Source of the DNA: Bacteriovoracaceae bacterium
GTDB lineage: Bacteria > Bdellovibrionota > Bacteriovoracia > Bacteriovoracales > Bacteriovoracaceae
DNA: 64,000 bases
Assembly (NCBI GenBank): GCA_040399925.1
Contig: JBBARF010000002.1
Location: 3,213-67,212 of the forward strand
Direction of reading: 5' to 3'
This document shows positions 6,782 through 32,832 of this stretch, piece by piece. A program made the position numbers and the translations under genes. Each line of letters starts with the position of its first letter. Position 1 is the stretch's first letter. Below the pieces are notes generated by a model, which saw only the letters and a program-made list of their open reading frames with translations, made no database searches and was not told the DNA's origin.

Positions 6782-6810
6782 TATTTTGTAGTCAGGTCTC
6801 AGCTTACGAG

Positions 6811-17761: not shown

Positions 17762-17762
17762 A

Positions 17763-18212: not shown

Positions 18213-18223
18213 TTTTTTTAATA

Positions 18224-18406
18224 ATGAAACGAAGGCGTCATTCAGTAGAGTCTTCTGCGAAGAGACTTCTAGGCATGGTTGAAGCCCTGATCAAGTCTGG
18301 TGCAGATATTCGCTTGGAAGCTATATTTGAGGAAGTTAAGAAGAAAGTTGCGGGCCTTGATAAGAAGATAAGGCTTCATAGGAAAGTTGAATCGGTTAAT
18401 TATTGA
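18224..18406 (+). CDS. Short hypothetical ORF or gene fragment
   Basis: 60-aa ORF following the TA pair; weak RBS; no confident family. Confidence 0.3.
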   Translation: MKRRRHSVESSAKRLLGMVEALIKSGADIRLEAIFEEVKKKVAGLDKKIRLHRKVESVNY

Positions 18407-18425
18407 TAGTTTGTTTGTGGAGAGG

Positions 18426-19988
18426 TCATTGTTTCATCCATAGTTCATGGCCGCATTGTCCTACAAAAATCTTTCTGAATTCGACTCCTGATGGTGAAGT
18501 GACCGAAGTCTTATTTTTAAGATCGTTATAAAACCGTTTTTTCTCGTCCCAGTTCTCAACCATCTTTCCGTAGAAATCTTTGGGAGGATCATTAAGGTAT
18601 TGTGTTGAGTTATGTCTGGTGACACCGAAGAAAACTACTTTTTCAGTAATCTTGCTCCAGTCAATTCCCCAATGAGCGGAGGTGTATTTATCGATTTTTT
18701 CGTCGGTTGGGAAATACGGTTCTTTAGCTACAAGATGATTTTCAGAAACGGTGGAAGAAATAATTTTCGTGATCTGATCGTACTCACTAAAACATGCGTT
18801 TTGCATTTTCTTCATTGCAAAATAGTTAGGACTAATTCCAATCAGTTTTATTCCGACTAAAATCAAAACTGCCGCAGCAAGATTAGAATTTACTCGCCAA
18901 GGTAAATAATGAAGTACCAAAACAAGGACTAGTACCATAAATGCAATCACTAGTGGCATTGTATGATGATCGCCATTAAACGACATCTTTCTCATTAAAA
19001 TAGGAATGAAACTTATGATCACCAAGGCGACTATTTTAAAAGAAAATAATTTTTCTCGGTTTTGAGAAAAGATGCTACCAACAAGTATAATTGGAGCGAC
19101 ATAAATTAATTGGTTTCCTGCAATACCTAGAATCTTTGAAATAGACTCTAAATCACCTATAGAATGGACGCTGCTTTCAAGAAGCAAAAACCGAATGTGT
19201 TTATAGAAGCCGAAGTTTTGCGGAAAGCCTACTGCTAAGTAAGCCAAGAGCATGTAACTAACATACTTTAGTGTGAGAGAAAGATTTTTTTTATTTAAAG
19301 GTACTATGAGAAGTAACAAGATCCCAGGTATGAAAATGGAGGTTGACCGCTTTACCGCCATGGCCAAGCCCCAAGTGAAGGCTGAAATAATTAGAATACG
19401 AAGATTCTCTTTTTCCGACAGAAAGCGAGCAAACATATATACAGCGATAGCAGTAAAGACATTTAGGAGATGCTCGGGATGAGGCCGAAAAATCCATTCA
19501 GTCCACATCGGTATTTGTAGTGTCGAGAGAAGGAAGAACATTCCAAAAAGTGGAACGATATAAACAGTTCCAAAAAATACCCATCCTATAAACAGACCCA
19601 AACTATACAATGAGAAAAGCGAAACAAGCTTGAGAGCAAAATTATGAGACTTTTCTCTGCCTTCTAGAGATGTCAGATTACCATTTTGCAATGGTACTAA
19701 ATCGGCAATTGACTGAGAAAGCCGGTAATAAAGGTTTCCATACGGGGCAAAATGATTCGAATTGTACCATCTGGTGGCCATAGAAGTTTCAATGGCCCTC
19801 CCCCCATCATTGTCGCCAGCAAAGACATAGCCCTTGTGTGTTGAGGTCTCATAGAGCGGAATCGACAAGTTAATGAGCAAATAAGCTGAAATCATTAGCG
19901 AGAATAACCATGAAACAACTCTGAAGGTATCCGAGATTAAGTGGTGGCTTCTTAAGAGAGAAAACTGCTGTAAAATAAATGCTTTCAA
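18426..19988 (-). CDS. Polytopic membrane protein, GT-C (ArnT/PMT-like) glycosyltransferase candidate
   Basis: About 11 TM helices, first-loop acidic motif DNDGG, conserved-type GLAMAVK, soluble C-terminal domain. Confidence 0.55.
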   Translation of the reverse strand: MKAFILQQFSLLRSHHLISDTFRVVSWLFSLMISAYLLINLSIPLYETSTHKGYVFAGDNDGGRAIETSMATRWYNSNHFAPYGNLYYRLSQSIADLVPLQNGNLTSLEGREKSHNFALKLVSLFSLYSLGLFIGWVFFGTVYIVPLFGMFFLLSTLQIPMWTEWIFRPHPEHLLNVFTAIAVYMFARFLSEKENLRILIISAFTWGLAMAVKRSTSIFIPGILLLLIVPLNKKNLSLTLKYVSYMLLAYLAVGFPQNFGFYKHIRFLLLESSVHSIGDLESISKILGIAGNQLIYVAPIILVGSIFSQNREKLFSFKIVALVIISFIPILMRKMSFNGDHHTMPLVIAFMVLVLVLVLHYLPWRVNSNLAAAVLILVGIKLIGISPNYFAMKKMQNACFSEYDQITKIISSTVSENHLVAKEPYFPTDEKIDKYTSAHWGIDWSKITEKVVFFGVTRHNSTQYLNDPPKDFYGKMVENWDEKKRFYNDLKNKTSVTSPSGVEFRKIFVGQCGHELWMKQ

Positions 19989-20032
19989 TACTTAATCCTG
20001 AGTTCTAATTGGAGAAAAATTAGTTTAGTATT

Positions 20033-21373
20033 TTGACTACTAAAATACAAAATTTGATTTCTTTAAATAGGAGTTTTGCTTTGCGAAATAATGTCATTGA
20101 AGCATCAAAAGCTTTTTTTCAACAACAGGGCGTTAAGAAGATTGTTCCAGGCACGGATTATATCCCTGTATCTGGAAAAGTTCTGGAAGAAGACGATCTG
20201 ACCAATCTTATTGAATCTTGCCTCGACCTCTGGTTAACCACCGGTCGTTTTGCTAAAGATTTTGAAAAGCAGTTCGCTACTTTCATGGAACAAAAATACT
20301 GTTTACTCGTCAATTCTGGATCATCGGCCAATCTAGTTGCTTTCAGTGCTCTGACTTCACCAGTTCTTGGAAAAGATATGGTTAAAGTTGGGGATGAAGT
20401 TATTACGGTCGCTGCTGGTTTTCCAACGACGGTCAATCCGATCATTCAATGTGGCTGTATTCCAGTTTTCGTCGATGTCGAAGCTGATACCCACCAAGTG
20501 GACATTACTCTTTTAGAAAAAGCTTTAAGTCCTAAAACTTCAGCAGTGATGATTGCCCATACTCTGGGAAATCCTTTCAACGTTAAAGCGGTTAAAGAAT
20601 TTTGCGACAAGCATGATCTTTGGCTGGTTGAAGATTGTTGTGATGCTGTTGGTGCTCGCCACCACGGTAAGATGATAGGAACTTTCGGTGATATCGCTAC
20701 AGTGAGCTTTTATCCTGCTCACCATATGACTATGGGTGAAGGCGGAGCTGTTCTCATGTCTGAGCATCGTTTGAAAAAGATTGCAGAAAGTTTCCGTGAC
20801 TGGGGTCGTGACTGTTGGTGCCCGACTGGAAAAGATAACTCATGCAATAATCGTTTTGGTCAGAAAATGGGCGAATTGCCAGAAGGCTATGATCATAAAT
20901 ATATCTACACTCACATTGGTTACAATCTCAAAGTGACGGATATGCAAGCGGCCATTGGTCTGTCTCAACTTCGTAAGCTTCCTAAGTTTATTGAAATGAG
21001 AAATGCCAATGCAAAATATCTTTCAACTAAACTTGAACATCTTACCCAGTTCATTAACTTGCCTAAAGTTACTCCTGATAGTGAGCCGAGTTGGTTTGGA
21101 TATCCGATTACCATTAAGGATCCTCGCATTTCAAGAAACGCTCTGGTTAAATTTCTTGAAGCTAATAAAATTGGAACTCGTTTGCTCTTCGCTGGAAATC
21201 TTTTACGCCAACCTCTTTATGAGCATGCTCCCAAGAGAGTCGTGGGTGAACTGAAGAATACCGATAAAATTATGAATGATACTTTCTGGACTGGAGTTTA
21301 TCCGGCGATCAAAGAAGTTCACTTAGATTATATCGCTTTAAAAATTGAAGAAGGAATTAAGGCACAACTATGA
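20033..21373 (+). CDS. rfbH: CDP-4-keto-6-deoxyglucose 3-dehydrase E1 (RfbH/DdhC)
   Basis: IPVSGKV, NSGSSANL, SFYPAHHMTMGEGG, RDWGRDCWC Fe-S Cys motif, RLLFAGNL. Confidence 0.93.
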   Translation: MTTKIQNLISLNRSFALRNNVIEASKAFFQQQGVKKIVPGTDYIPVSGKVLEEDDLTNLIESCLDLWLTTGRFAKDFEKQFATFMEQKYCLLVNSGSSANLVAFSALTSPVLGKDMVKVGDEVITVAAGFPTTVNPIIQCGCIPVFVDVEADTHQVDITLLEKALSPKTSAVMIAHTLGNPFNVKAVKEFCDKHDLWLVEDCCDAVGARHHGKMIGTFGDIATVSFYPAHHMTMGEGGAVLMSEHRLKKIAESFRDWGRDCWCPTGKDNSCNNRFGQKMGELPEGYDHKYIYTHIGYNLKVTDMQAAIGLSQLRKLPKFIEMRNANAKYLSTKLEHLTQFINLPKVTPDSEPSWFGYPITIKDPRISRNALVKFLEANKIGTRLLFAGNLLRQPLYEHAPKRVVGELKNTDKIMNDTFWTGVYPAIKEVHLDYIALKIEEGIKAQL

Positions 21374-22140
21374 AAGTCGCAATTCTCGCAGGTGGATACG
21401 GAACAAGATTAAGTGAAGAGACCGACATTAAACCAAAACCAATGGTTGATATTGGTGGAAAGCCCATCATCTGGCACATCATGAAACACTATTCTCATTA
21501 CGGGCATAATGAATTCGTCATCCTTTGTGGTTACAAGAGCTATTACATTAAAGAATATTTCGCGAACTATTTTCTTCATCAGAGTGACGTTACGTTTGAT
21601 ATTAAAAATAATAAAATGGAAATTCACAACAACACTAGTGAACCATGGAAAGTGACTTTGGTTGATACCGGTCTTGAAACAATGACTGGCGGGCGTGTGA
21701 AACGGGCTGAGAAGTTTTTAAAAGATGATACCTTTCTTCTTACTTACGGTGATGGAGTGAGTGACATTGATCTTGAAAAATTGATCTCCTTCCATAAGAA
21801 GAATGGCAAGCTCATGACTCTGACTTCGGTTCAACCTGATGGCAGATTCGGAGCACTTGAACTTGAAGGAGATTTGATCCGTAAATTTGCCGAGAAACCA
21901 AAAGGCGACGGTTCTTGGATCAATGGCGGCTTCTTTGTATGTGAGCCGAAAATTTTTGATTACATTACTGAAGGTGACGCAACAATTCTCGAAAGATCTC
22001 CTCTGGAAAAACTCGCTAACGAAAGACAACTCGTGGCTTTCAAACACGAAGGATTCTGGAGACCAATGGACACTCTTAGAGATAAAGTTCAGCTGGAACA
22101 ACTATGGGCCGATAAGAAGGCTCCATGGAAGGTTTGGTAG
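21370..22140 (+). CDS. rfbF: Glucose-1-phosphate cytidylyltransferase
   Basis: ILAGGYGTRLSEET..KPKPMV, VDTGLETMTGGRVKR, LTYGDGVSD. Confidence 0.95.
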   Translation: MKVAILAGGYGTRLSEETDIKPKPMVDIGGKPIIWHIMKHYSHYGHNEFVILCGYKSYYIKEYFANYFLHQSDVTFDIKNNKMEIHNNTSEPWKVTLVDTGLETMTGGRVKRAEKFLKDDTFLLTYGDGVSDIDLEKLISFHKKNGKLMTLTSVQPDGRFGALELEGDLIRKFAEKPKGDGSWINGGFFVCEPKIFDYITEGDATILERSPLEKLANERQLVAFKHEGFWRPMDTLRDKVQLEQLWADKKAPWKVW

Positions 22141-23201
22141 TGAATAAGGCGTTCTGGAAAGGGAAAAGAGTTTTTGTTACCGGTCATACTGGCTTCAAAG
22201 GAAGCTGGTTAGTGATGATACTCAAAGATGCTGGCGCCGTTGTGGCCGGATATTCGCGAGATATCCCGACAACTCCATCGTTTTTTGAAACTTGTAAAGT
22301 AAGTGAGCTTTTAGAAAAAGATTATCGTGGTGATATTGTTAATCATCAAAAATTTAAACAAGACCTCTTTGATTTTTCTCCTGAGATCGTTTTCCACTTG
22401 GCGGCTCAGCCACTGGTTAGATTATCTTATGCAGACCCATTTGAAACCTACAACACAAACGTCATGGGCACACTTTCCGTCTTAATGGCGGCGAGCGAGT
22501 GCTTAAGTGTAAATACCATCGTCAATATTACGACCGACAAATGTTATGACAATAAAGAGTGGGCATGGGGCTATAGAGAAAATGATTCTCTAGGCGGGCA
22601 TGATCCTTATTCTAGCTCCAAAGCATGTGCTGAAATATTATCTGCCAGTATCAGAGATTCTTTTCTAACGAAGAGTCATAAGAAAATGGCCACTGCCCGC
22701 GCTGGAAATGTAATCGGTGGCGGTGACTGGGCACAGGACAGGATTGTTCCGGATTTTATGCGTGCCTTTGAATCAAAAACTAAAATACAAATTCGTAACC
22801 CCTATGCCACTCGTCCATGGCAACATGTGATTGAGCCTCTTGTAGGTTATATGACTTTGGCCGAGAAGCTTTATAATGATGGCAGCTACTCTGGTGCTTG
22901 GAATTTTGGTCCAGATGAGAAAGACTGTAAGAATGTTGAATACATTGTCTCCACACTTCATGAAATCGTTCCTGAACACAAGGGCATTGAAGTTCAGAAA
23001 AGTGCTCATCAACCGCATGAAGCTAATTTCTTAAAGCTTGATTGCAGTAAGGCCAAATCACAGCTTGGTTGGTATCCAAAGTTTGATGTCAAAGAAGCAC
23101 TCACTTTATCGGCTGACTGGTATGTGAAGTTCCTTCAGGGTGATGATATGCAGAAAGTTTCTTATGATCATATCAATCGATACTTTCAACATGAAAAATG
23201 A
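22125..23201 (+). CDS. rfbG: CDP-glucose 4,6-dehydratase
   Basis: FWKGKRVFVTGHTGFKGSWL, HLAAQPLVR, TTDKCY, DPYSSSK, RPWQHV. Confidence 0.95.
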   Translation: MEGLVVNKAFWKGKRVFVTGHTGFKGSWLVMILKDAGAVVAGYSRDIPTTPSFFETCKVSELLEKDYRGDIVNHQKFKQDLFDFSPEIVFHLAAQPLVRLSYADPFETYNTNVMGTLSVLMAASECLSVNTIVNITTDKCYDNKEWAWGYRENDSLGGHDPYSSSKACAEILSASIRDSFLTKSHKKMATARAGNVIGGGDWAQDRIVPDFMRAFESKTKIQIRNPYATRPWQHVIEPLVGYMTLAEKLYNDGSYSGAWNFGPDEKDCKNVEYIVSTLHEIVPEHKGIEVQKSAHQPHEANFLKLDCSKAKSQLGWYPKFDVKEALTLSADWYVKFLQGDDMQKVSYDHINRYFQHEK

Positions 23202-24177
23202 AGTTCTTGCGAAGTTAAATGGCAAACGTCTTTTCTTAACTGGTGGCACCGGTTATTTCGGTAAATCATTTTTGCAATGCCTGAAGTCGTATGATGTTGA
23301 ACTGAAAATCTTGACCCGCAACAGTCGTAGCTTTATCGAAAAATATCCTGGCTTATATGATTGTAAACGTATGTCCTTTATTGATGGTGATATCCAGACA
23401 TTTGATTTTCCCAAAGAACACTTTGATCACATCCTTCATTTTGCGACTCCCGCAGACGCAATTTGGAATGTCACTCATCCTCTTGAGATGTTTGATACGA
23501 TTGTAAACGGTACCCGCAGAGTTTTAGATTTCGCTGTAGAAGCGAAAATTAAGTCGGTGCTTTTTGCTAGTTCAGGTGCCGTTTATGGGAAGCAACCTCG
23601 GGAGTGTTCTCACATTCCTGAAGAGTATTTAGGTGCTCCGGACGTTACTCAGAATAATTCATCCTACGGTGAAGGCAAACGAGTCGCCGAGTATTTAGGA
23701 ACCTCCTATTCCCGCAAATATGGCTTCGATTTTAAGATTGCCCGCTGTTTTGCTTTTATCGGACCTCATCTTGATCCTGATGGAACCTATGCTATCGGCA
23801 ATCTTTTAAAAGATGCTGTTCAGGGCAAAACATTAACTATTCAGGGCGATGGAACGCCCTACAGATCGTTTCTCTATAGTGATGATCTGGTTTTATGGTT
23901 GGTGAAAATTCTGTGTGATGGTAAAAACTCCATCCCTTATAACGTAGGATCGGATCAAGATTTAAGCATCAAGGACCTGGCAGAGAAAATCGTAAAGACT
24001 CTCAATCTAAATAATGAAATCATAATTAAAAGTCAGACTACTCCTGGTAAACCGATCGAACGATATGTTCCATCTATCGAACGGGCCAAAAGGGACTTGG
24101 GTCTACAGGTATATACTTCTCTCGACGAATCCATCAAACTAACAGCTGCTTTTTATGCTGAAAAAATAGGCTTATAA
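23191..24177 (+). CDS. NAD-dependent epimerase/dehydratase (extended SDR), possible side-chain ketoreductase
   Basis: TGGTGYFG, ASSGAVYG, YGEGK, ARCFAFIGP. ATG23191 is preferred over 23140. Confidence 0.8.
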   Translation: MKNEVLAKLNGKRLFLTGGTGYFGKSFLQCLKSYDVELKILTRNSRSFIEKYPGLYDCKRMSFIDGDIQTFDFPKEHFDHILHFATPADAIWNVTHPLEMFDTIVNGTRRVLDFAVEAKIKSVLFASSGAVYGKQPRECSHIPEEYLGAPDVTQNNSSYGEGKRVAEYLGTSYSRKYGFDFKIARCFAFIGPHLDPDGTYAIGNLLKDAVQGKTLTIQGDGTPYRSFLYSDDLVLWLVKILCDGKNSIPYNVGSDQDLSIKDLAEKIVKTLNLNNEIIIKSQTTPGKPIERYVPSIERAKRDLGLQVYTSLDESIKLTAAFYAEKIGL

Positions 24178-24179
24178 AA

Positions 24180-26027
24180 ATGAATGATACGACTAAAATT
24201 AAAGTTTCAGACTACCTCGCGCAATTCTTGAAAGATAAAAAGATTGAACACGTTTTTGGAATCATTGGTTCCGGAAACGCTCATATTTTCGACTCAATCA
24301 ATAGTCTTGGCTATAGTGAGATCGTTTGTGTTCACCACGAGCAAGCCGCAGTTATGGCCGCTGGAACTTACTATCGTATGACCGGAAAAATTAGTGCCGT
24401 GTTGTTAACAACAGGTGCTGGCTCACTGAACGGGATTACAGGAAACATTAGTCTCTGGATGGATTCCATTCCGGCGTTAATTCTTTCTGGAAATGAAAAT
24501 TCGAAATTCACTACTCCTGAAAACAAATTACGTATCTGGGGTATCCAGGGCTACAACAGCACTAAGGTTGTTGAAGATTATAATAAATACGTTATGCGCG
24601 TAATGAATCCTGCATCGATAAGTCTTGAATTAGAAAAAGCTTATGACATTGCCGGGAAGGGCAGACCGGGTCCTGTTTGGCTTGATATTCCTATGAATAT
24701 CCAGGCGGCCCAGGTGGCAGTTGCTGAACTTCAGAAATACGATAAGCCAATTGAAACTTCTTTCAAACCAACTAAGAGCGTTCAGACTTTTGATCAAGGT
24801 ATTGATCAGATTGTAGCTGGTCTTCAAAATGCTAAACGTCCAGTTATCTGGCTGGGTCACGGCATACGTCTGGCCGGAGCTGTAGAATTAATTAAACCAC
24901 TACTCAAAAACTTAAATTCACCTGCGCTTATTACCTGGAACGGAATCGACATGCTTGATTCTGATCATCCATCTCTCTTTGGCAGAGCGGGAATCTATGG
25001 CCAGAGAGCTGGAAACTTTGTTCTTCAGAACTGTGATTATCTTTTAACGATTGGAACCAGACTCGCTATTCCGCAAGTAGGATATGAGATCAATGAACTC
25101 GCAAGAGACGCTAAAATTGCATGCATTGATGTCGATCATCTTGAAGTTGAAAAATATGCTCAGCGCTTTGAAACCTGTCTCTGTGTTGATGCCAAAGAGT
25201 TTATGGAAAAACTCATTCAGAAAACGGATTCCTTAAAAGGAACGTTCTCAGCTTCCTACAGCGACTGGTGGAAGCAATGTCATTTGTATAAAGAGCGTTT
25301 CCCATGGGTCATGCCAGAACATAAAGACAAAGACGGCTTCATCAACTCTTACCCGTTCATGGAAAAGCTCTCTAAACACCTTAAAAAAGATTCAATTGTT
25401 GTTACAGACATGGGGACTGCTCTCTTGAGTGGTCACCAGGTTTTGAAAATGAAAGATCAGCAAAGACTCATGACTTCAACCGGTCTTGGCGAAATGGGTT
25501 TTGGTTTGCCGGCTGCTATCGGTGCTTCTTTTGGAAGTAACCACGGTGAAGTGGTATGCCTAAACTGCGATGGCGGGATGATGATGAATTTGCAGGAACT
25601 GCAAACCATCGCTCATCACAAGCTTCCTGTTAAAATCATCATCTTCAATAATGATGGTTACCTGATGATTAAACATACTCAAAAAGCCCTCTTTCAAGGC
25701 CGGTACTCTGGTACCGATCAGAAATCAGGGGTTACGTGTCCTGACTTCACGGAGCTGGCTAAAGCCTTTAAATTTGAAAATTTCCAGATTCGCACATGGG
25801 AAAACTTCGATGAGGTCATCCCTAAAATGATGAACACCAAAGGTCCTACTATCGTCGAAGTGTTCATGCACCCAGAGCAGTTATTTGTTCCGAAGCTATC
25901 CCTTGCTCCTCAGAAAGATGGTTCAATCGTCTCTCCCCCGATGGAGGATTTGTTCCCGTTCCTGGATAGAGCAGTATTGAAAGAAAATATGATCATTGGA
26001 ATTCATCCAAAATCTGAAAAGGTTTAA
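24180..26027 (+). CDS. ThDP-dependent carboligase (YerE-like, acetolactate-synthase fold) with CDG motif
   Basis: HHEQAA, GRPGPVWLDIP, GEMGFGLPAAIG, cofactor motif CDG-x24-NN (C463 at 25566). Confidence 0.85.
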   Translation: MNDTTKIKVSDYLAQFLKDKKIEHVFGIIGSGNAHIFDSINSLGYSEIVCVHHEQAAVMAAGTYYRMTGKISAVLLTTGAGSLNGITGNISLWMDSIPALILSGNENSKFTTPENKLRIWGIQGYNSTKVVEDYNKYVMRVMNPASISLELEKAYDIAGKGRPGPVWLDIPMNIQAAQVAVAELQKYDKPIETSFKPTKSVQTFDQGIDQIVAGLQNAKRPVIWLGHGIRLAGAVELIKPLLKNLNSPALITWNGIDMLDSDHPSLFGRAGIYGQRAGNFVLQNCDYLLTIGTRLAIPQVGYEINELARDAKIACIDVDHLEVEKYAQRFETCLCVDAKEFMEKLIQKTDSLKGTFSASYSDWWKQCHLYKERFPWVMPEHKDKDGFINSYPFMEKLSKHLKKDSIVVTDMGTALLSGHQVLKMKDQQRLMTSTGLGEMGFGLPAAIGASFGSNHGEVVCLNCDGGMMMNLQELQTIAHHKLPVKIIIFNNDGYLMIKHTQKALFQGRYSGTDQKSGVTCPDFTELAKAFKFENFQIRTWENFDEVIPKMMNTKGPTIVEVFMHPEQLFVPKLSLAPQKDGSIVSPPMEDLFPFLDRAVLKENMIIGIHPKSEKV

Positions 26028-26030
26028 GAA

Positions 26031-26969
26031 ATGTCAGGCGCAGAATTTATCAGTATTGTTACACCTTGCTTCAATGAAGAAGGAAATATCGAAGAGTTGG
26101 TTAAACAAATCAGAGATGTTTTCATTAAGATGAATCACACGAACTATGAGCACATTATCATTGATAATGATTCACAGGATAATACTCAGAATCTTCTGCG
26201 TGAATTGGCGGCAAAAGACCCTAAGATCAAAGTGATCATGAATAACCGAAACTTCGGTCATATTCGTTCACCTTATTATGGTCTACTTCAAGCGAAGGGT
26301 GATGCTGCTGTCTTGATGGCCTCTGATCTGCAGGATCCGCCTGAGATGATTATCGATTTCGTTAAAAAATGGCGAGAAGGATATAAGGTCGTTCTGGGCG
26401 TGAAAACTCAGAGTGAAGAGTCGCCGATCATGTTCGCCATCCGCAAGGCCTATTACGATTTCGTGGCCCGTGTATCTGATACAAAACTTGTTAAAAACAA
26501 TACCGGTTTCGGACTGTATGACAAAAAAGTCATTCAGATCTTAAACGATATCCAGGACCCATATCCATACTTTCGTGGCTTAATCTCTGAATTAGGATTT
26601 AAGTCCGCTAAAATTGATTTCCACCAGCCGAGTCGCAAGCGTGGTGTAACCAGCAATAACTTTTATAAGCTCTACGATATCGCAATGCTGGGGATTACCA
26701 GTCACTCGAAAGTTCCGCTTAGAATGGCAACAATGTCAGGGTTCTTGTTATCGATTTTGAGTTTTATTACGGCCATGGTTTACTTCGTCTTGAAACTTAT
26801 CTTTTGGGATCAGTTCCAGCTGGGAATTGCCCCAATGCTCATTGGGATCTTCTTCTTTATGTCGATTCAGCTTTTTTTCATTGGCATTATAGGTGAATAC
26901 GTTGGATTCATCCATACACAGGTGATGAAGCGACCGCTGGTGACTGAAAAAGAACGTATTAACTTTTAA
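26031..26969 (+). CDS. GT2 polyprenol-phosphate glycosyltransferase (GtrB/DPM-like)
   Basis: SIVTPCFNEEGNI, IDNDSQD, RNFGH, MASDLQDPP, two C-terminal TM helices. Confidence 0.9.
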   Translation: MSGAEFISIVTPCFNEEGNIEELVKQIRDVFIKMNHTNYEHIIIDNDSQDNTQNLLRELAAKDPKIKVIMNNRNFGHIRSPYYGLLQAKGDAAVLMASDLQDPPEMIIDFVKKWREGYKVVLGVKTQSEESPIMFAIRKAYYDFVARVSDTKLVKNNTGFGLYDKKVIQILNDIQDPYPYFRGLISELGFKSAKIDFHQPSRKRGVTSNNFYKLYDIAMLGITSHSKVPLRMATMSGFLLSILSFITAMVYFVLKLIFWDQFQLGIAPMLIGIFFFMSIQLFFIGIIGEYVGFIHTQVMKRPLVTEKERINF

Positions 26970-26973
26970 GTTA

Positions 26974-28029
26974 TTACCTTCCTAAACGGTACCAACGAAT
27001 AGATTTCTCAATTGCTGTTTTAGTATCAATCTTCAATTTAACGTTGAAAGTACTTTCAAATTTACTGATTGATGGAAGAAACTTAGTTAAAAGTCCCGAG
27101 TGAACAGGCACTGTTGAAACGATGCCTGATTTTCCATCAAAGTTCTGATCAACGATCTGAGCGGTAGCTCTTAATGATTTACCGTCGTCACTTCCAATAT
27201 TAAACGATGCTCCTGAAGTTTTGTTAGAAAGCGCCAGAAGAGTCCAGAAGGCCATTTCTGTAGGATACATGTAACTACGAACAGTTTCCTCATCACCGAT
27301 AATTCTGATCGGCTGCGAGGCAAGACCGTCACGAATGAAATTATTGATCGCCCATGGACGCTCTAGCGACTGATAAGGTCCAATGAATGCGAAAGGGCGA
27401 AGAACTGTAAGTGGTATCTTAAAAGAACTTCTATAAGACTGTGCCATCGATTCTGCAGCTCGTTTAGATTCAGCGTATGTTGAATTTAGAGACGAACAGC
27501 TGAGACCATAGAACGATTCTTCTTTGATATTCTCAGAAGAATAGGGCTGCATGCCGTAAACAAGACCAGAACTATACTGAAGGAAGTTAGCTAAATTATC
27601 GAGTCTCGTGCTGGCATTTAAAATCTGGTTAGTTCCAGTAATAATATCGTTCATGACTCTGACCGGGTCAGAAGCATGCTCTCTATTATCGGGAGTTCCT
27701 GCGAGGTGAATAACATAAGAAACATCTCTATCGATTTCAGAAAGATTCTTAATGTCGCCCTGAAGGAGCTTGATATTTTTTTTATTGAAAACTTCCGGAA
27801 ACTCAACGGCCACAGAGTTCATTCTGCGAGAGTGAGCAATAACCTGGATATTAGAACTGTGGTTTTCATTCAGAAAATTAATTAATCCTATGATCCATTT
27901 TCCAACAAACCCAGAAGCCCCTGAAATAAAGATCTGCTTGTTTTTTAGGAAATCAAGACGGCTGACGTTCCCACTAGCAAGCATTTCAGTAATATCTAAA
28001 TTGAACGCATCAATCTGTTTTAAATTCAT
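26974..28029 (-). CDS. NAD-dependent epimerase/dehydratase (extended SDR)
   Basis: ISGASGFVG, SSGLVYG, YAESK, LRPFAFIGP. Confidence 0.85.
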   Translation of the reverse strand: MNLKQIDAFNLDITEMLASGNVSRLDFLKNKQIFISGASGFVGKWIIGLINFLNENHSSNIQVIAHSRRMNSVAVEFPEVFNKKNIKLLQGDIKNLSEIDRDVSYVIHLAGTPDNREHASDPVRVMNDIITGTNQILNASTRLDNLANFLQYSSGLVYGMQPYSSENIKEESFYGLSCSSLNSTYAESKRAAESMAQSYRSSFKIPLTVLRPFAFIGPYQSLERPWAINNFIRDGLASQPIRIIGDEETVRSYMYPTEMAFWTLLALSNKTSGASFNIGSDDGKSLRATAQIVDQNFDGKSGIVSTVPVHSGLLTKFLPSISKFESTFNVKLKIDTKTAIEKSIRWYRLGR

Positions 28030-29042
28030 GTGGTCATCCTTACTTGCTTAGAAAGCTCAATCGCAACTTCAACAATAACGTCTTCCTGACCGGCAACAAC
28101 TTTACGCTCACCGAGCTTAAAGAAAATATCACGAGGGTCAACGTTGTATTCTTTGGCAAGTCTGTTCACTGGAGCTGCGAAACCTGAGAATACGCCGGCA
28201 ATTCCACTTACGATACTTGTCGACTTGATACTAGGAACTTCAGTCATCAAATGCTTCTCAGCGATGTCTGCAGCATCTAATACGCTATAAAGATCAATCC
28301 CTGTAGAGAAGCCTTCTTTCTCTAATACCGGAACTAAAACTTCTAACTGAGTATTTCCCGCACCAGCACCGAAACCTCTGGCACATGCGTCTAAAATCGT
28401 TGCGCCGTTCTGGGCTGCAATGATTGAGTTAATCACGGCCATCCCTAGGTTGTTGTGACCATGGAAACCAACTCGGATCTTTAAATTAGCTACGAGAGCT
28501 TTAATTCTTTCTTCAATATCTCTCGGGAAGTAGGCACCAGCTGAATCCATGATAACCACAGCTTCGGCTCCGTAAGTTTCCATCTTTTTAGCTTCTTCAA
28601 CCAGAGTTTCCACGGAGGCCATGTGGCTCATCATCAGTACTCCGAAAACTTCTTTGCCTTTCTCACGAACATAACTGATGTGATTTCTTGTGACGTCAGC
28701 TTCGGTACAGTGAGAAGCAATTCTGAAAACATCTACACCAATATCCAGTGCCAGATTGATATCTTTTTTGATTGTCGCAAATCCAGGAATTACGTGAATG
28801 CTGAGTTTTGAATGATTGAGATTCTCACGAGCGGTTTCAAGAAGCGTCTTATCCGTTTCGCGACAAATACCAACCTGAATTGAAGAAGCACCCAAACCAT
28901 TTCCATGGCCAACTTCAATCACTGGAATACGCGCCTTATCAGCAGCTTTACAATAAAGGGCAATTTGCTCTTTAGTGAGTTGGTGTTTGATAGCGTGGTT
29001 TCCATCTCGTAGAGTAGGGTCACAAATTGTGATATGTTTCAT
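28026..29042 (-). CDS. dmpG: 4-hydroxy-2-oxovalerate aldolase (DmpG/MhpE family)
   Basis: DPTLRDGNH, IEVGHGNGLG, HCTEAD, DSAG, GFHGHNNLG, DPRDI. GGAG supports ATG29042. Confidence 0.92.
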   Translation of the reverse strand: MKHITICDPTLRDGNHAIKHQLTKEQIALYCKAADKARIPVIEVGHGNGLGASSIQVGICRETDKTLLETARENLNHSKLSIHVIPGFATIKKDINLALDIGVDVFRIASHCTEADVTRNHISYVREKGKEVFGVLMMSHMASVETLVEEAKKMETYGAEAVVIMDSAGAYFPRDIEERIKALVANLKIRVGFHGHNNLGMAVINSIIAAQNGATILDACARGFGAGAGNTQLEVLVPVLEKEGFSTGIDLYSVLDAADIAEKHLMTEVPSIKSTSIVSGIAGVFSGFAAPVNRLAKEYNVDPRDIFFKLGERKVVAGQEDVIVEVAIELSKQVRMTT

Positions 29043-29054
29043 TTGATTCTCCAA

Positions 29055-29927
29055 TTATTTATTTTTGGCGTATTCTTCGGCCATGCTGATGGCTGCACAG
29101 TTGATAATATCCAGATTCCCGGCATATTTTGGTAGGTAATCACCAAGTCCCTGAACGCGAACCATAACCATAATTCTACCGTTTTCAAAAACTGGAGGTA
29201 CTACAATTCTGTAGCCTGGAACATAAGCTTGAATTTTAGCTTCCATTTCGCGTATCGGACCTTCTAATTTCTTAGCGTCACACTCTTTAACTTTGGCAAA
29301 TACCGTTGTCTGCATATCGATGCACGGAACAGCAGGGTTAAGATTCAAAATCGCCTTAACGTTCTTGCAGCCAGACAATTCCTGAATACCCATTTCCGTA
29401 TTATCGATATATTCATCAATATTGGCACGAGTACCAGGACCAGCACTTCTTGAAGCAATGCTTGATACTGTTTCAATATACTCAATTCCTTCAACATGCT
29501 TCATAAGCGTATAAGCAAGGGGAGTAGAGGCCTGTCCACCACATGTAACCATGTTGATGTTATCGTAACCAAGGCAGTCTTTACCGTTGATTGCAGGCAC
29601 ACACATTTTTCCGAATTGAGACGGAGTCATGTCGATACATTTAATTCCAAGCTTTCGAAGAATTGGGGCATGGATGAGGTGTGAGGCTGCAGTTGTAGCA
29701 TCAAACACCAGATCACAAATGGTTGGGTTTTGTTGGATGGCCTCGATTCCCTGATCCGATATCGGAACATTTTTGGAATTGGCTTTTTGCATACCGGGAG
29801 AAGCGAGGTTTCGGCCGATGAACAATGTGCATTCAAGGTGCTCAGATCTTAGGATCTTAAGCAACAGATCTGTACCGATATTTCCACTGCCAAGAATGGC
29901 AACTCTTAGTTTTTTGCCCGATATCAA
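29055..29927 (-). CDS. dmpF: Acetaldehyde dehydrogenase (acylating) (DmpF/MhpF family)
   Basis: ILGSGNIGTDL, FDATTA, NMVTCGGQA, SAGPGTRANIDEY, YAGNLDI. Confidence 0.93.
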   Translation of the reverse strand: MISGKKLRVAILGSGNIGTDLLLKILRSEHLECTLFIGRNLASPGMQKANSKNVPISDQGIEAIQQNPTICDLVFDATTAASHLIHAPILRKLGIKCIDMTPSQFGKMCVPAINGKDCLGYDNINMVTCGGQASTPLAYTLMKHVEGIEYIETVSSIASRSAGPGTRANIDEYIDNTEMGIQELSGCKNVKAILNLNPAVPCIDMQTTVFAKVKECDAKKLEGPIREMEAKIQAYVPGYRIVVPPVFENGRIMVMVRVQGLGDYLPKYAGNLDIINCAAISMAEEYAKNK

Positions 29928-30141
29928 AAGAACCCCCTAAGGATGCATAACTTAATTTTTTTTATGAGATTATAACAAATAGGGAATGTTGTCGTGAGTA
30001 AAATAGACATTTGATACATGGCGTGAGCAAGGGGTATTTTTTTAATCAATTTAATTAGTTATTTATTAACAAGCTTAGATATATATCAATTTACGGTTCA
30101 TTTTTACCCTAATCCATGTAATCTCATTATGAGATAAATAA

Positions 30142-31683
30142 ATGACTTCAAATAAACCATATCTAAATCCTTACTTACAGATTCTTCTTGGAAGTCTGAT
30201 AGTCTTCTTTTTGGCCTATTGCTTTCACTTTAATGCGGATTTGAGTGATGAAGGGTTCTATCTCTACTATTTCCAGCAGGGCCACAAGGCCGTTTCCTTT
30301 AACTTTTATCATGTTTTTGTTTCACCGATCGGAAGTCTTTTTTCCCACTATTTGATTGGATATCGATATTTGAGGTTGGTTCTTATATTAGGATCTAGCT
30401 TATTCCTTTATTTCTCCATGCCGGTGGATAAGCGGAGAAATAACTGGCTTCTTCCCTTATGTCTTGGTCTCTTGTATTTCAATCTACTTTCTACCTTTTC
30501 ATACAATACGGCTGTTCTCTGTGGAGCAAGTCTTGCATTAGCTCTGAACATCAAAATTCAGTATTCGACATTCAAAAAAACGATTTCTTCCATCCTAGGA
30601 ATATTGTGCTTTTTTTCTTTTTCCGCCAGGTTTGGTTCTGGAATTATCATTCTTGTTTTGAGCTCAATTTCTTTTTTTCTTTATATAGAAAATAAACGAG
30701 AGGCGATGAAATGCATCGCACTTTTATGGGTCATGTTCACCCTTTGTTTCGTGATTTATTTGTTCATGTTCAAAGAAAACTTTTTTTTGATGCTTGAAAC
30801 CTTACCTGCAATTACAAAGAGTACTCATCTTGGACTTTTTGATAAGTATCTGAGTCAAACCACTAGATTCATCCTCAGAAGTGTCTTCCCGCCACTTTTA
30901 TTAGGCCTACTTTCATTAAAGTATTTCCCTCGCAAGTACTTTTCAGTTTTATTGGCCTATCTTAGCTGGTTCATTGTTAAAAATATTTTCTACGAGTACG
31001 ATTTTTCGAAGTTTGGGTATTATGCATCCGGCTTAATTCTCACTCTTGCGATCATAGAAATTTATACCAAATACACTAAAGAAACTTTTTTCTATCTTTT
31101 GTTTCCACTGGCGCTGTATTTTTCATCTTCTTTGGGGACGAATAATAATCTTTTTGAATTTGCCGCCTATAATTCACTTTTATTTTACCCTTTGATTGGC
31201 AGTTTAAGATTGAGTTCACTTAAATTTCAGATTTTAAGTAGTTTATTGTTCATCCTGGCATTGGTGGGAATTTATAAGAATCAGTATCATCAAACTTATC
31301 GATCTTTGCCTCGCTCAGAACTGACATTCGTCGCGAGCAATTATCCCGCGCTAAGAGGCATAAAAGTAAATCAAATGACTGAGTTGAAACTAGCTAATCT
31401 TACACAAATGCTGACGAGCTCAGGGTTCAACTTTCAATCAGATCAAATAGTGGTTTACCCTAATATGCCAGGCCTTGTTTCTTTCTTAAACCTCAAGGCT
31501 TTTGGGAATCCATGGAATATTGATATCTATCCTAAGTCTCATATTTCCAACTGCATATTCTATAAAGTTGAACCAATTAATGCCGAAGGTCGGGTTTTCC
31601 TTTACTCGGAAAAAGACCTACCGACTGAAATGACTGAATGTTTAAAAAGGCCAATGATTGAGCTTCATGGAAAGTCTCAATAG
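30142..31683 (+). CDS. Polytopic membrane protein, GT-C-like glycosyltransferase (or polymerase/ligase) candidate
   Basis: About 12 TM helices, acidic motif DLSDEGFY right after TM1, soluble C-terminal domain. Confidence 0.55.
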   Translation: MTSNKPYLNPYLQILLGSLIVFFLAYCFHFNADLSDEGFYLYYFQQGHKAVSFNFYHVFVSPIGSLFSHYLIGYRYLRLVLILGSSLFLYFSMPVDKRRNNWLLPLCLGLLYFNLLSTFSYNTAVLCGASLALALNIKIQYSTFKKTISSILGILCFFSFSARFGSGIIILVLSSISFFLYIENKREAMKCIALLWVMFTLCFVIYLFMFKENFFLMLETLPAITKSTHLGLFDKYLSQTTRFILRSVFPPLLLGLLSLKYFPRKYFSVLLAYLSWFIVKNIFYEYDFSKFGYYASGLILTLAIIEIYTKYTKETFFYLLFPLALYFSSSLGTNNNLFEFAAYNSLLFYPLIGSLRLSSLKFQILSSLLFILALVGIYKNQYHQTYRSLPRSELTFVASNYPALRGIKVNQMTELKLANLTQMLTSSGFNFQSDQIVVYPNMPGLVSFLNLKAFGNPWNIDIYPKSHISNCIFYKVEPINAEGRVFLYSEKDLPTEMTECLKRPMIELHGKSQ

Positions 31684-31773
31684 TTCTTTTGCCATGTGTT
31701 ATCCATCGATCTTTCATAGCTGAAAACCTCCTGTTTTGTTATAAAAGTAGTGTAAATTCAACACGGGATTTCC

Positions 31774-32832
31774 ATGAAGGCAAAATGCTTATTAGTTACT
31801 GGCGGTGCTGGCTTTATCGGCTCGGCCCTGATTCGACATTTAATCAAAACGACTGACTATACCGTAATTAATTTAGACAAGCTTACCTATGCGGGAAATC
31901 TAGAATCTCTGGCCGAAATTGAAAATTCAAACCGATACACCTTTGTTAAAGGTGATATTTGCGACAAAACGTTGGTCAGCAAACTTTTAAAAACCCATCA
32001 GCCCTCTGCAATCATGCATCTTGCAGCAGAGTCGCATGTGGATCGCTCTATCGATGGTCCGTCTGAGTTTATTCAAACAAACATCATCGGTACGTTCAAT
32101 CTTCTCGAATGCGCTTTAGAGTACTGGAAATCTGAAAATCAAAATCCAGATTTTAGATTTCAGCATATTTCGACGGATGAAGTTTATGGATCGCTTGGTG
32201 AAACAGGTCTCTTTAAAGAAACGACTCCCTATGATCCTAGTTCTCCCTATTCGGCCTCTAAAGCTTCTTCGGATCATCTCGTCAGAGCATGGGAACGCAC
32301 ATACGGTCTGCCAGTTCTCGTAACAAATTGCTCTAACAATTATGGTCCTTATCACTTTCCTGAAAAACTGATTCCCTTAATTATTCAAAATGCACTCCAA
32401 GGAAAACCTTTGCCTGTCTATGGTGATGGAAAACAAATTCGTGATTGGCTCTTTGTTGAAGATCATGCCAAGGCCCTTTTTGCGGTCCTTGAAAAAGGTA
32501 AAGTCGGCGAGACCTACAATGTAGGCGGGGATTCTGAGAGACAAAATATCGATGTCGTAAAAAAAATCTGCGGCTTTCTGGATGAATACGTTCCTGATTC
32601 TGCGTTCAGGCCTCATGCTCAACTCATTACCTACGTTGCTGATCGACCAGGGCATGACAGAAGATATGCCATTGATTGCAGTAAACTCAAAAATGAACTG
32701 GGTTGGAAACAAGAAGAGAACTTTGAGTCGGGCATAAAGAAAACAGTTCAATGGTTTCTTGATAACCAGGCATGGGTTAAACAGGTTCTTGCCAATAAAT
32801 ACTCTGGCGAAAGATTAGGATTAAAAAAATGA
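31774..32832 (+). CDS. rfbB: dTDP-glucose 4,6-dehydratase
   Basis: [45 protein letters not shown]. Confidence 0.97.

Follow-up and report, generated by a model that had tools for sequence, protein, structure and literature searches.

Gene organization of the module

The window analysed here is a 64,000-nt stretch of contig JBBARF010000002.1 from a Bacteriovoracaceae bacterium, in which we studied a module at positions 18426-31683. The module comprises the following genes:

18426..19988, minus strand: P0122, GT-C-fold, PMT_2-like membrane protein (weak PF13231 match of 26 bits, and AF2 fold)
20033..21373, plus strand: RfbH/DdhC/E1, CDP-4-keto-6-deoxyglucose 3-dehydrase (NF011936, 697 bits, cut-off 423)
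21370..22140, plus strand: RfbF/DdhA, glucose-1-phosphate cytidylyltransferase (TIGR02623, 424 bits, cut-off 300)
22125..23201, plus strand: RfbG/DdhB, CDP-glucose 4,6-dehydratase (TIGR02622, 476 bits, cut-off 278)
23140..24177, plus strand: extended SDR no. 1 (PF01370; GGTGYFG and YGEGK motifs)
24180..26027, plus strand: P0001, JanthE-type YerE-like ThDP lyase (811 bits to JanthE, 8rph)
26031..26969, plus strand: polyprenyl-phosphate glycosyltransferase, GT2, GtrB/ArnC type (175 bits to GtrB, 5ekp)
26974..28029, minus strand: extended SDR no. 2, candidate branch ketoreductase (PF01370; GASGFVG and YAESK motifs)
28026..29054, minus strand: DmpG/BphI-type class II pyruvate aldolase (NF006049, 454 bits)
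29055..29927, minus strand: DmpF/BphJ-type acylating acetaldehyde dehydrogenase (TIGR03215, 368 bits)
30142..31683, plus strand: P0123, second GT-C-fold polytopic membrane protein (no Pfam match; AF2 fold)

The called P0122 gene is shorter than the open reading frame listed: its start lies about 93 nt inside, leaving 489 aa. Every gene that the initial annotation had named (rfbH-F-G, an SDR, a ThDP enzyme, a GT2, dmpFG with a further SDR and two GT-C genes) was found in its place. Scans of open reading frames, Pfam and NCBIfam place rfbH, rfbF, rfbG, SDR no. 1, the ThDP gene and the GT2 gene in a single operon (20033-26969). A second operon, dmpF-dmpG-SDR (29927-26974), is convergent with it, and the operon ends lie 4 bp apart. 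Within the operons, genes overlap or are 2-3 bases apart, and one GT-C-fold membrane protein is encoded at either end of the module. The description of the module as self-contained could not be upheld, because neither an E3/AscD-type reductase nor a GtrA-type flippase was found in the 92%-complete genome. An O-polysaccharide locus neighbours the module.

The ThDP enzyme belongs to the JanthE-type CDG lyases

P0001 contains the TPP_enzyme N, M and C domains of a three-domain ThDP enzyme (Pfam). Over 609 residues its identity to JanthE is 57%. JanthE is a ThDP lyase with a CDG motif from Janthinobacterium sp. HH01 (PDB 8rph; Lanza et al. 2024/2025, PMC12188165). The solved YerE homologue PpYerE (5ahk), in contrast, gave only 255 bits. 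The ThDP-binding motif at residue 463 reads CDG-x24-NN, with CDG replacing GDG, and C463, D464 and G465 are shared by all of the 12 diverse family members that we aligned. Of five JanthE active-site residues, Y268, P293, Y297 and K567 are identical in P0001 and V121 is replaced by Ile. By its sequence, P0001 is a JanthE-type CDG-motif lyase and a candidate for the branch-forming carboligase.

The best NCBIfam names for P0001 are acetolactate synthase (AHAS) large subunits, and public annotations give its homologues the same name, as would fit a plain acetolactate synthase whose gene neighbourhood is coincidental. However, the TIGR00118 score of 348 bits lies well short of the equivalog cut-off of 538, and P0001 is below the cut-off of every listed AHAS model. 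Its score of about 210 bits against AHAS I of E. coli compares with 811 bits against JanthE. With the cut-off missed and CDG in place of GDG, we rejected the biosynthetic AHAS large subunit as its identity. In addition, no other AHAS-like gene was found in the genome, and the conserved neighbours of the P0001 family are sugar genes, so we give this explanation hardly any credence.

Work on JanthE has treated it as a biocatalyst, and its natural substrates were described as unidentified. It accepts 4-hydroxy-2-oxovalerate and in vitro also takes pyruvate and other donors (PMC12188165), so that enzyme selectivity alone does not fix the donor. In contrast, the genomic context here points to 4-hydroxy-2-oxopentanoate and a CDP-ketosugar as substrates. 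Oxalobacteraceae loci related to the JanthE host (L058, L062, L065 and L080) likewise carry DmpF-DmpG-SDR-RfbFGH neighbours. What is new here is that the ThDP enzyme of such a module is of the JanthE type.

DmpF and a DmpG with a 4R-type signature

The DmpG-type aldolase matches DmpG (1nvm) with 278 bits and keeps all of the catalytic and pyruvate-binding residues R17, D18, H21, H200 and H202. We aligned 69 aldolases extracted from the window and from the cassette loci fetched from other genomes (see below). In all 69, including that of the window, BphI L87 is replaced by His and Y290 by Phe. Changes of L87 to N or W together with Y290F are known to switch BphI from 4S to 4R (PMC3962088). The window aldolase carries this 4R-type His/Phe signature, and its predicted product is probably (4R)-4-hydroxy-2-oxopentanoate. 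The DmpF-type dehydrogenase, with scores of 368-377 bits, retains the catalytic cysteine (TCGGQA) and the NAD motif GSGNIGTDL. The gene for SDR no. 2 shares 4 nt with the end of dmpG. Like SDR no. 1, SDR no. 2 has GxxGxxG and YxxxK motifs; it is a candidate branch ketoreductase with an ErwF/YerF-like role.

The pair shares its fold, catalytic residues, DmpG communication domain and dehydrogenase cysteine with the DmpFG/BphIJ enzymes of aromatic meta-cleavage, and aldehyde channelling is therefore likely kept. In contrast to those enzymes, it has His and Phe where Leu and Tyr enforce 4S specificity, it lacks hydratase and dioxygenase neighbours, and we propose that it works in the synthetic direction. 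No dmpE, second DmpFG or meta-cleavage context was found in the genome. A catabolic meta-cleavage pair was rejected on the replacement of Leu87 and Tyr290, the missing dmpE and the sugar genes next to it.

The cassette is conserved in other genomes

We scanned a genome collection for the ThDP gene and fetched the loci of the best 80 of 220 matches, all from other species and none from Pectobacterium. Among these best 80 of 220 matches, DmpF lies within 10 kb of the ThDP gene in 75 loci, DmpG in 74, an SDR no. 2-like gene, next to DmpG, in 77, and RfbF, RfbG and RfbH in 58-60. The linked loci span many phyla. Such a module had been thought unusual for a presumed predatory bacterium; this does not hold for the Bdellovibrionota, since at least six other MAGs of the lineage carry the cassette (L001, L007, L009, L011, L022 and L044). 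In one relative (L089), the ThDP enzyme is 94% identical and the biosynthetic genes are present, but GT2 and GT-C genes are absent alongside. This suggests that the lipid-carrier route is an add-on and not intrinsic to the cassette.

Genes for the CDP-ketosugar

RfbH/E1 enzymes depend on PMP and a [2Fe-2S] cluster. The RfbH of the module matches Yersinia E1 (3bcx) with 556 bits and keeps both the PAHH histidine and the iron-sulfur motif C...CxC-x7-C (CWCPTGKDNSC). Of the CDP-sugar gene set in NCBIfam, DdhA, DdhB and DdhC are present, and the full set, which includes DdhD, is not. The 92%-complete genome has no PF00175 domain anywhere, and the E3-like genes of other loci gave no tblastn match in it. 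Such E3-like genes are present in 13 of the 80 related loci (best 80 of 220 matches).

SDR no. 1 finds its best PDB matches among UXS-type enzymes and 4,6-dehydratases, at about 100 bits. Among the best 80 of 220 matches, about 17 loci have a clear orthologue, at 40-49% identity. SDR no. 1 is also present in L081, L083, L085 and L089, and travels with RfbHFG in the lineage. It is a candidate epimerase or second reductase.

A GtrB/ArnC-like GT2 and two GT-C-fold proteins

Besides GtrB, the GT2 matches ArnC (9hwj, 113 bits) and, in NCBIfam, PgfS (190 bits) and ArnC (125 bits). It has two C-terminal TM helices, starting at residues 232 and 261. Its similarity to GtrB and ArnC suggests that the sugar is probably transferred via polyprenyl phosphate to the GT-C enzymes. 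We know of no GtrB-type enzyme documented with a CDP-sugar donor. Ten related loci have a GtrA-like gene next to that for the GT2; the 92%-complete genome studied here yielded neither a PF04138 match nor another obvious flippase.

The AF2 model of P0122 (pLDDT 89.5) has ALG12, ArnT, STT3 and AftA as its top PDB folds, at probability 1.0, and its best 19 PDB matches are all GT-C enzymes. Most of its 40 homologues have PF13231, and the family conserves the motif D59-N-D61-G-G-R of loop 1, in which D61 and G63 never vary. In L081 and L083 the homologues are divergently oriented to RfbH. P0122 is a candidate periplasmic transferase for a lipid-linked branched sugar. For P0123 (pLDDT 92.5), the top folds are AglB, ArnT, STT3, EmbC and Pmt4, and GT-C enzymes make up 7 of the best 9 PDB matches. 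The GT-C matches of both proteins mostly have probabilities of 0.9-1.0, with best TM-scores of about 0.4-0.5. P0123 belongs to a small, unannotated family (92 homologues among 1.8 billion representatives) with an acidic motif in the first periplasmic loop, D33..D36-E37. D36 never varies in this motif, and at least 90% of sequences keep D33 and E37. P0123 homologues follow a GtrB-like GT2 in L085/L086. Overall, P0122 and P0123 homologues are found beside GtrB-like GT2s in deoxysugar modules, which are of the branched-sugar type in L081, L083 and L085/L086.

This arrangement resembles the GtrA/GtrB/GtrC, ArnC/ArnT and PgfS/PgfM systems in its GtrB/ArnC-homologous GT2 with two C-terminal TM helices and in the GT-C-fold transferases beside it. 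It differs from them in that a branched C10 sugar activated by CDP would serve as donor, that GtrA was not found and that two unrelated GT-C enzymes accompany one GT2.

Comparison with known branched-sugar pathways

The erwiniose-type pathway has been known since 2022, and the module adds to a widespread, known kind. The erwiniose cluster of the plant pathogen Pectobacterium atrosepticum SCRI1043 encodes the ThDP lyase ErwE, the reductase ErwF, the aldolase ErwI and the acetaldehyde dehydrogenase ErwJ (WP_011093010-13; Steitz et al. 2022, PMC9306805). In this route, DmpFG-type enzymes provide 4-hydroxy-2-oxopentanoate, the YerE-like lyase joins this acid to CDP-4-keto-3,6-dideoxyglucose, and reduction of the branch by an SDR yields erwiniose. 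ErwE, whose chemistry was shown with a model ketone, uses 4-hydroxy-2-oxopentanoate, rejects pyruvate and selects the 4R enantiomer (PMC9306805). Judged by the published enzyme set rather than by sequence, the module is alike in having an aldolase and a dehydrogenase beside a YerE-like lyase, a candidate reductase and CDP-sugar genes, and the measured 4R preference of ErwE agrees with the 4R donor predicted here. Unlike the Erw cluster, the module has a CDG-type ThDP enzyme, two SDRs and no detected E3; its host is a Bacteriovoracaceae-like predator and not an enterobacterium; and a GtrB/ArnC-like GT2 with two GT-C enzymes replaces the ordinary glycosyltransferase proposed for P. atrosepticum (PMC9306805). 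Because the published scheme needs one SDR, the final sugar may differ from erwiniose.

The yersiniose A pathway of Yersinia pseudotuberculosis (YerE/YerF) shares the DdhA-C/E1 route to the acceptor sugar as well as ThDP-dependent C4 branching followed by SDR reduction. However, YerE uses pyruvate as donor and makes a C2 branch, the aldolase/dehydrogenase pair is missing there, and Yersinia encodes the E3 (DdhD) that this module lacks.

Proposed pathway and alternative explanations

We propose, with a probability of about 0.6, that the module makes CDP-3,6-dideoxy-4-C-(1,3-dihydroxybutyl)-hexose (erwiniose or a stereoisomer, C10), which would then probably be attached periplasmically to an envelope glycoconjugate. 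What the analysis shows is the identity of the genes, their catalytic motifs, the folds and the linkage across species; the product remains a prediction, as do its stereochemistry, its loading on a lipid carrier and the choice of acceptor. RfbF, RfbG and RfbH would turn glucose-1-phosphate into CDP-4-keto-3,6-dideoxy-D-glucose, with electrons for the E1 iron-sulfur cluster coming from a reductase encoded outside the module. DmpF would convert acetyl-CoA to acetaldehyde, which the aldolase would join with pyruvate, probably to (4R)-4-hydroxy-2-oxopentanoate. The ThDP lyase would decarboxylate this acid and add the 3-hydroxybutanoyl unit to the C4 ketone, giving a tertiary alcohol. SDR no. 2 would reduce the branch ketone, and SDR no. 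1 may epimerise or further tailor the sugar. The GT2 could then shift the sugar from CDP to polyprenyl phosphate, and after flipping one or both GT-C enzymes may pass it on; the O-polysaccharide of the adjacent locus, the core and lipid A are possible acceptors. The initial annotation had already expected an erwiniose-type C10 sugar from DmpFG-derived 4-hydroxy-2-oxovalerate, a YerE-like carboligase and CDP-4-keto-3,6-dideoxyglucose. This prediction gains support from the near-obligate linkage of the ThDP enzyme with DmpF, DmpG, the SDR and RfbFGH, from the 4R-type aldolase signature and from its match to the experimentally backed ErwE/F/I/J scheme (PMC9306805).

The order of the branching steps might be reversed, with the ThDP lyase adding acetyl from pyruvate, as for yersiniose, and the aldolase using acetaldehyde from DmpF to lengthen this branch to an identical 3-hydroxybutanoyl unit. 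In favour of this order, pyruvate is accepted by JanthE (PMC12188165) but not by ErwE, and an acetyl-branched sugar could conceivably chelate the aldolase metal through its alpha-hydroxy ketone, as pyruvate does. However, this order was tested and rejected for ErwE by Steitz et al. (PMC9306805). Moreover, the pyruvate-binding and catalytic residues of DmpG are all kept, and the only changes in the aldolase fall on the two residues that sense the C4 stereocentre in a free 4-hydroxy-2-oxo acid; a bulky CDP-sugar would be expected to require a far more remodelled pocket. We consider the reversed order improbable. Slightly more improbable still is a yersiniose-type C2-branched sugar or an unbranched 3,6-dideoxyhexose, with DmpFG as an unrelated metabolic neighbour. 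The use of pyruvate by JanthE in vitro would agree with such a product, as would SDR no. 1 if it were an abequose/paratose synthase-type 4-ketoreductase, and the lack of E3 may keep the pathway from running as proposed. Against this reading, the ThDP family has DmpF and DmpG beside it across many phyla, in 74-75 of the best 80 of 220 matches. The pair belongs to one operon with an SDR of the sugar type and shows a family-wide altered stereo-signature, and the genome offers no meta-cleavage context.

The biosynthesis could also be as proposed while a Leloir glycosyltransferase from the adjacent O-polysaccharide locus uses the CDP-sugar directly in the cytoplasm and the GT2 and GT-C enzymes serve another sugar. 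The ordinary glycosyltransferase of the P. atrosepticum proposal, the cassette of L089 with neither GT2 nor GT-C, the missing flippase and the pairing of a P0123 homologue with a GtrB-like GT2 in a dTDP-sugar module (L084) all speak for such a split. On the other hand, the GT2 gene begins 3 nt past the end of the ThDP gene in the same operon, and it is the only GtrB-like GT2 gene in the 64-kb window. Furthermore, of the 32 loci with such a GT2, 22 have it abutting a cassette gene (20 of the 22 on the same strand), and both GT-C families recur beside branched-sugar modules. We regard this alternative as unlikely but deserving of weight, and favour the erwiniose-type sugar with periplasmic transfer.

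Bdellovibrio lipid A carries neutral mannoses in place of phosphates. A wider reading, which as a whole we hold to be speculative and rather doubtful, would make JanthE-type CDG lyases family-wide the branching enzymes of a pan-bacterial 4-C-(1,3-dihydroxybutyl)-3,6-dideoxyhexose cassette, fed with (4R)-4-hydroxy-2-oxopentanoate by a natural 'stereo-inverted' DmpG. The predatory lineage would load the sugar on undecaprenyl phosphate, and two unrelated GT-C enzymes would serve two envelope sites, which could be both ends of lipid A. Exchange of the branch-forming block among relatives would diversify the cell surface. Close relatives do swap this block: the module has a CDG lyase, one relative has a GDG lyase with an HpaI aldolase, and others have a split transketolase.

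Organisation of the locus

ORF mapping together with Pfam and NCBIfam scans recovered every gene that the initial annotation had listed, in the positions given there. The locus is organised as follows:

18426-19988, minus strand: polytopic membrane protein P0122, facing outward at one end of the module
20033-26969, plus strand: six-gene operon encoding RfbH/E1, the 3-dehydrase (NF011936, 697 bits, cut-off 423); RfbF, glucose-1-phosphate cytidylyltransferase (TIGR02623, 424 bits); RfbG, CDP-glucose 4,6-dehydratase (TIGR02622, 476 bits); an extended SDR (SDR no. 1); the three-domain ThDP enzyme P0001; and a GT2
29927-26974, minus strand: convergent three-gene operon encoding a DmpF-type acetaldehyde dehydrogenase (368 bits), a DmpG-type aldolase (454 bits) and a second extended SDR (SDR no. 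2)
30142-31683, plus strand: polytopic membrane protein P0123, facing outward at the other end
31774-60755: O-polysaccharide region with dTDP-3-acetamido-sugar genes, WbpA/B/D/E-like genes, amidotransferases and Wzm/Wzt

The genes of the plus-strand operon overlap or are separated by gaps of 2-3 nt, and 4 bp lie between the stop codons of the two convergent operons. The branched-sugar module thus described sits at the edge of the long O-polysaccharide region. A promoter and terminator scan of 18000-32000 was uninformative, as promoter-like sites were less frequent than in shuffled sequence and convincing terminators were absent.

The same enzyme set is known from the erwiniose cluster of Pectobacterium atrosepticum, which encodes the ThDP lyase ErwE, the reductase ErwF, the BphI-like aldolase ErwI and the BphJ-like acetaldehyde dehydrogenase ErwJ, alongside the enzymes that make CDP-4-keto-3,6-dideoxyglucose (Steitz et al. 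2022, PMC9306805). The four Erw proteins carry the accessions WP_011093010-13. ErwE was shown to join 4-hydroxy-2-oxopentanoate to a model cyclic ketone; it is selective for the 4R enantiomer and does not use pyruvate (PMC9306805). The initial annotation had proposed that DmpFG supply this donor for an erwiniose-type C10 sugar; this was correct in substance and equals the scheme of Steitz et al. 2022 (PMC9306805). The locus is confirmed and its interpretation supported, but the pathway type was already known and the basic picture of 2022 is unchanged. What appears noteworthy here, judging from sequence, is the context given to a CDG-type lyase, a natural 4R-type aldolase signature, a putative lipid-carrier delivery route and the swapping of branch modules.

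The predicted branch-forming ThDP enzyme

P0001 scored 348 bits against the 538 bits of TIGR00118 and stayed under every acetolactate synthase cut-off, so that we rejected a plain acetolactate synthase. Among solved structures, 8rph is clearly its closest relative (811 bits), with PpYerE (5ahk) at 255 bits and E. coli AHAS I at about 210. 8rph is JanthE from Janthinobacterium sp. HH01, a YerE-like lyase in which an unusual CDG replaces the GDG ThDP-binding motif (PMC12188165). P0001 shares 57% identity with JanthE across 609 residues, carries the motif as C463-D-G-x24-NN and retains four of the five active-site residues of Lanza et al. (Y268, P293, Y297 and K567), V121 being replaced by Ile. 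The donors of JanthE include 4-hydroxy-2-oxovalerate, and its physiological substrates were stated as not yet identified (PMC12188165). The Oxalobacteraceae loci nearest to the host of JanthE (L058, L062, L065, L080) have the same neighbours as the window cassette. For JanthE, which is being engineered for chiral tertiary alcohols, our data give a testable natural role.

The aldolase/dehydrogenase pair and the proposed order of the pathway

When aligned to DmpG (1nvm), the window aldolase keeps the catalytic Arg17, Asp18 and His21 as well as the His200/His202 pair. DmpF keeps the catalytic cysteine (TCGGQA) and the NAD motif. The aldolase differs from the references at two positions, having His at DmpG Leu88 (BphI Leu87) and Phe at DmpG Tyr291 (BphI Tyr290). 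His/Phe is found in all 69 of the 69 extractable cassette-linked aldolases, that of the window included, whereas two catabolic reference aldolases carry Leu/Tyr. In BphI, Leu87 and Tyr290 flank the C4 stereocentre; Y290F abolishes stereocontrol, and combining it with L87N or L87W inverts the product from 4S to 4R (PMC3962088). Since these engineered variants give 4R, we infer that the natural His/Phe pair would likewise yield a 4R product. ErwE uses this same enantiomer, and erwiniose has this configuration (PMC9306805). The invariant pair could thus mark a ready-made natural 4R-selective pyruvate aldolase, and may serve as a sequence marker for predicting branch stereochemistry.

Two other readings were weighed. 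A catabolic role of DmpFG was rejected, given the His/Phe pair in place of the Leu/Tyr of the catabolic references and a genome without dmpE: the window's own assembly (G000, 92% complete) contains one DmpFG pair only, and neither a dmpE hydratase nor further AHAS-like genes were found in it. The pathway might also run in the other order, with acetyl branching by a pyruvate-accepting lyase first and aldol extension second. This fits poorly, because the aldolase has kept its pyruvate site in full. The favoured order remains the one in which the aldolase provides the donor of the ThDP lyase. SDR no. 1 may act as an epimerase or as another reductase, and the product may therefore be a stereoisomer or derivative of erwiniose.

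P0001 is the sole acetolactate-synthase-like gene found in G000, which fits a predator without branched-chain amino acid synthesis.

RfbH and its electron donor

RfbH aligned with the Yersinia E1 (3bcx) at 556 bits. It keeps the PAHH histidine in place of the usual lysine and the [2Fe-2S] cysteine pattern of E1 (EDCC...C-W-C-x7-C), and is therefore a genuine 3-dehydrase, dependent on an external two-electron donor. An E3 reductase was sought by homology and by domain, and none was found in the module or in the 92%-complete genome. No protein of the whole assembly matched NAD_binding_1 (PF00175, ferredoxin-NADP reductase type), a domain that our control search detected in 11 of 14 reference genomes. 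Moreover, tblastn of the genome with the FNR-plus-ferredoxin reductases of some related clusters gave no match. E3-like genes also occur in only 13 of the 80 best of 220 related loci. The module had been described as self-contained, which does not hold, because the electron donor of E1 is not encoded in it. The related dehydrase SpnQ runs on general cellular ferredoxin or flavodoxin reductases, so a missing E3 is not fatal.

In the Bacteroidota versions of the cluster (L002-L006, L016, L033, L041, L053, L059, L063; at about 6000-7080 in most), a candidate reductase composed of an FNR-like part at the N-terminus and a 2Fe-2S ferredoxin domain at the C-terminus apparently takes the place of E3. 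The domain order of the classical AscD/DdhD is the opposite.

Distribution of the cassette

Relatives of P0001 were sought in one genome per species, and 220 carry the CDG motif. The family is very conserved, with about 60% identity across phyla. Neighbours within 10 kb were counted by tblastn with the window proteins in the best 80 of these 220 loci. DmpF was found in 75/80, DmpG in 74/80, an SDR no. 2-like protein in 77/80 and RfbF, RfbG and RfbH in 58-60/80, many of the misses coinciding with contig ends. Judging from the window locus and at least 220 relatives, the erwiniose-type cassette appears to be spread across many phyla. Cultivated carriers include Mucilaginibacter, Duganella and Leptospira ilyithenensis strains. 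To our knowledge, long-branched sugars such as erwiniose have been recorded from very few organisms, a scarcity that stems from their hard chemical detection.

Several Bacteriovoracaceae, Bdellovibrio and Pseudobdellovibrio MAGs are among the closest named relatives in the loci listed (L001, L007, L009, L011, L022, L044). The initial annotation had called the sugar unusual for a presumed predatory bacterium; with the cassette in several Bdellovibrionota MAGs, it is not unusual for this group.

An FkbM-family methyltransferase gene (about 312 aa) occurs in 17 related loci (cluster c7: L006, L007, L010, L015, L021, L029 and 11 more). In some of them (L010, L015) its insertion separates dmpF from dmpG, suggesting O-methylated versions of the branched sugar.

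Exchange of branch-forming modules

In syntenic loci of close relatives, RfbHFG-SDR no. 1 and the GT2 are kept and the branch-forming block is exchanged. In L081 (4103-5814) and L083 (1756-3469), a split transketolase with N-terminal and pyrimidine/C-terminal subunits takes the place of ThDP-DmpFG-SDR no. 2 between RfbHFG-SDR and a GtrB-like GT2, so that the same dideoxy sugar may receive another branch there, probably of two carbons. L085 (3242-8709) and L086, which resemble each other in layout, encode an HpcH/HpaI aldolase and a ThDP enzyme of the GDG type that shares only 34% identity with P0001. In both, DmpG retains the His/Phe signature and is, by eye, about 85% identical to that of the window. 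The presence of two aldolases per module could point to a longer branch, as in caryophyllose or gastriose. L089, with a ThDP enzyme 94% identical to P0001, has the whole biosynthetic set without GT2 or GT-C genes beside it. Together with the block exchange, this indicates that the biosynthetic cassette and the delivery genes are separable.

Proposed transfer of the sugar

The GT2 of the module (26031-26969) scored 175 bits to GtrB (5ekp) and 113 bits to ArnC and has two C-terminal TM helices, a predicted polyprenyl-phosphate glycosyltransferase architecture. These same features led us to reject an ordinary Leloir repeat-unit enzyme. The other GT2 of the window (36904-37800) lacks TM helices. 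Of the 80 best of 220 loci, 32 contain GtrB-like GT2 genes; in 22 of the 32 the distance to a cassette gene is at most 150 bp, in 20 with both genes on the same strand. A GtrA-like gene (about 135 aa) is co-located in ten loci and adjoins the GT2 in those inspected; GtrA was not found in the window's own 92%-complete genome.

The structure models of P0122 (pLDDT 89.5; top PDB matches ALG12, ArnT, STT3, AftA and PglB) and P0123 (pLDDT 92.5; AglB, ArnT, STT3, EmbC and Pmt4) matched these folds with TM-scores of about 0.43-0.48 at probability 1.0. Both are thus modelled as GT-C folds, and each has a conserved acidic motif right behind the first TM helix. They showed no similarity to each other in BLASTP and hence are not paralogues. 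In L081 and L083, P0122 homologues are encoded divergently from RfbH-RfbF-RfbG-SDR-...-GT2. Those of P0123 directly follow a GtrB-like GT2 (59% identical to that of the window) in L085/L086 and accompany another one in L084. These neighbourhoods support a functional link to the sugar module and its GT2. Among ten large membrane proteins encoded next to GT2 genes in other loci, Pfam assigned PMT_2 to one, Na+/H+ exchanger to one and GT8 to one, with no match for seven; with a single PMT_2, the GT2 and GT-C pairing in other phyla is suggestive, not established.

The most economical reading is that the GT2 would shift the sugar from CDP to polyprenyl phosphate, that the lipid-linked sugar would be flipped across the membrane and that one or both GT-C enzymes would join it to a periplasmic acceptor. 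For this acceptor, the ABC-transporter-type O-polysaccharide encoded next door is the natural candidate. The link of the cassette to a GtrB-like GT2 and to GT-C proteins suggests that CDP-activated branched sugars can enter a lipid-carrier route of periplasmic glycosylation.

Neighbouring genes

A block at 31774-37800 contains rmlB, rmlA, fdtA, an acetyltransferase gene, fdtB, a Wzx-like flippase gene and the soluble GT2, which jointly would lead to a dTDP-3-acetamido-3,6-dideoxyhexose. The block is flanked by P0123 and the DAO/WbpE genes and is missing from the syntenic locus L085, so that it looks like an inserted cassette. The O-polysaccharide locus also encodes a 442-aa protein without Pfam match or predicted TM helix (52809-54137) and one of 797 aa whose sole matches are faint and GT1-like (49376-51769).

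Between the module and the upstream genes, at 17420-18212, a DUF4258 protein is directly followed by a 149-aa protein without Pfam match that is HTH-like by eye; the pair looks like a toxin-antitoxin module. Together with a PRiA4_ORF3-like gene (14496-15101), this pair marks the interval that separates the glycan locus from the motor-like cluster upstream as variable or mobile.
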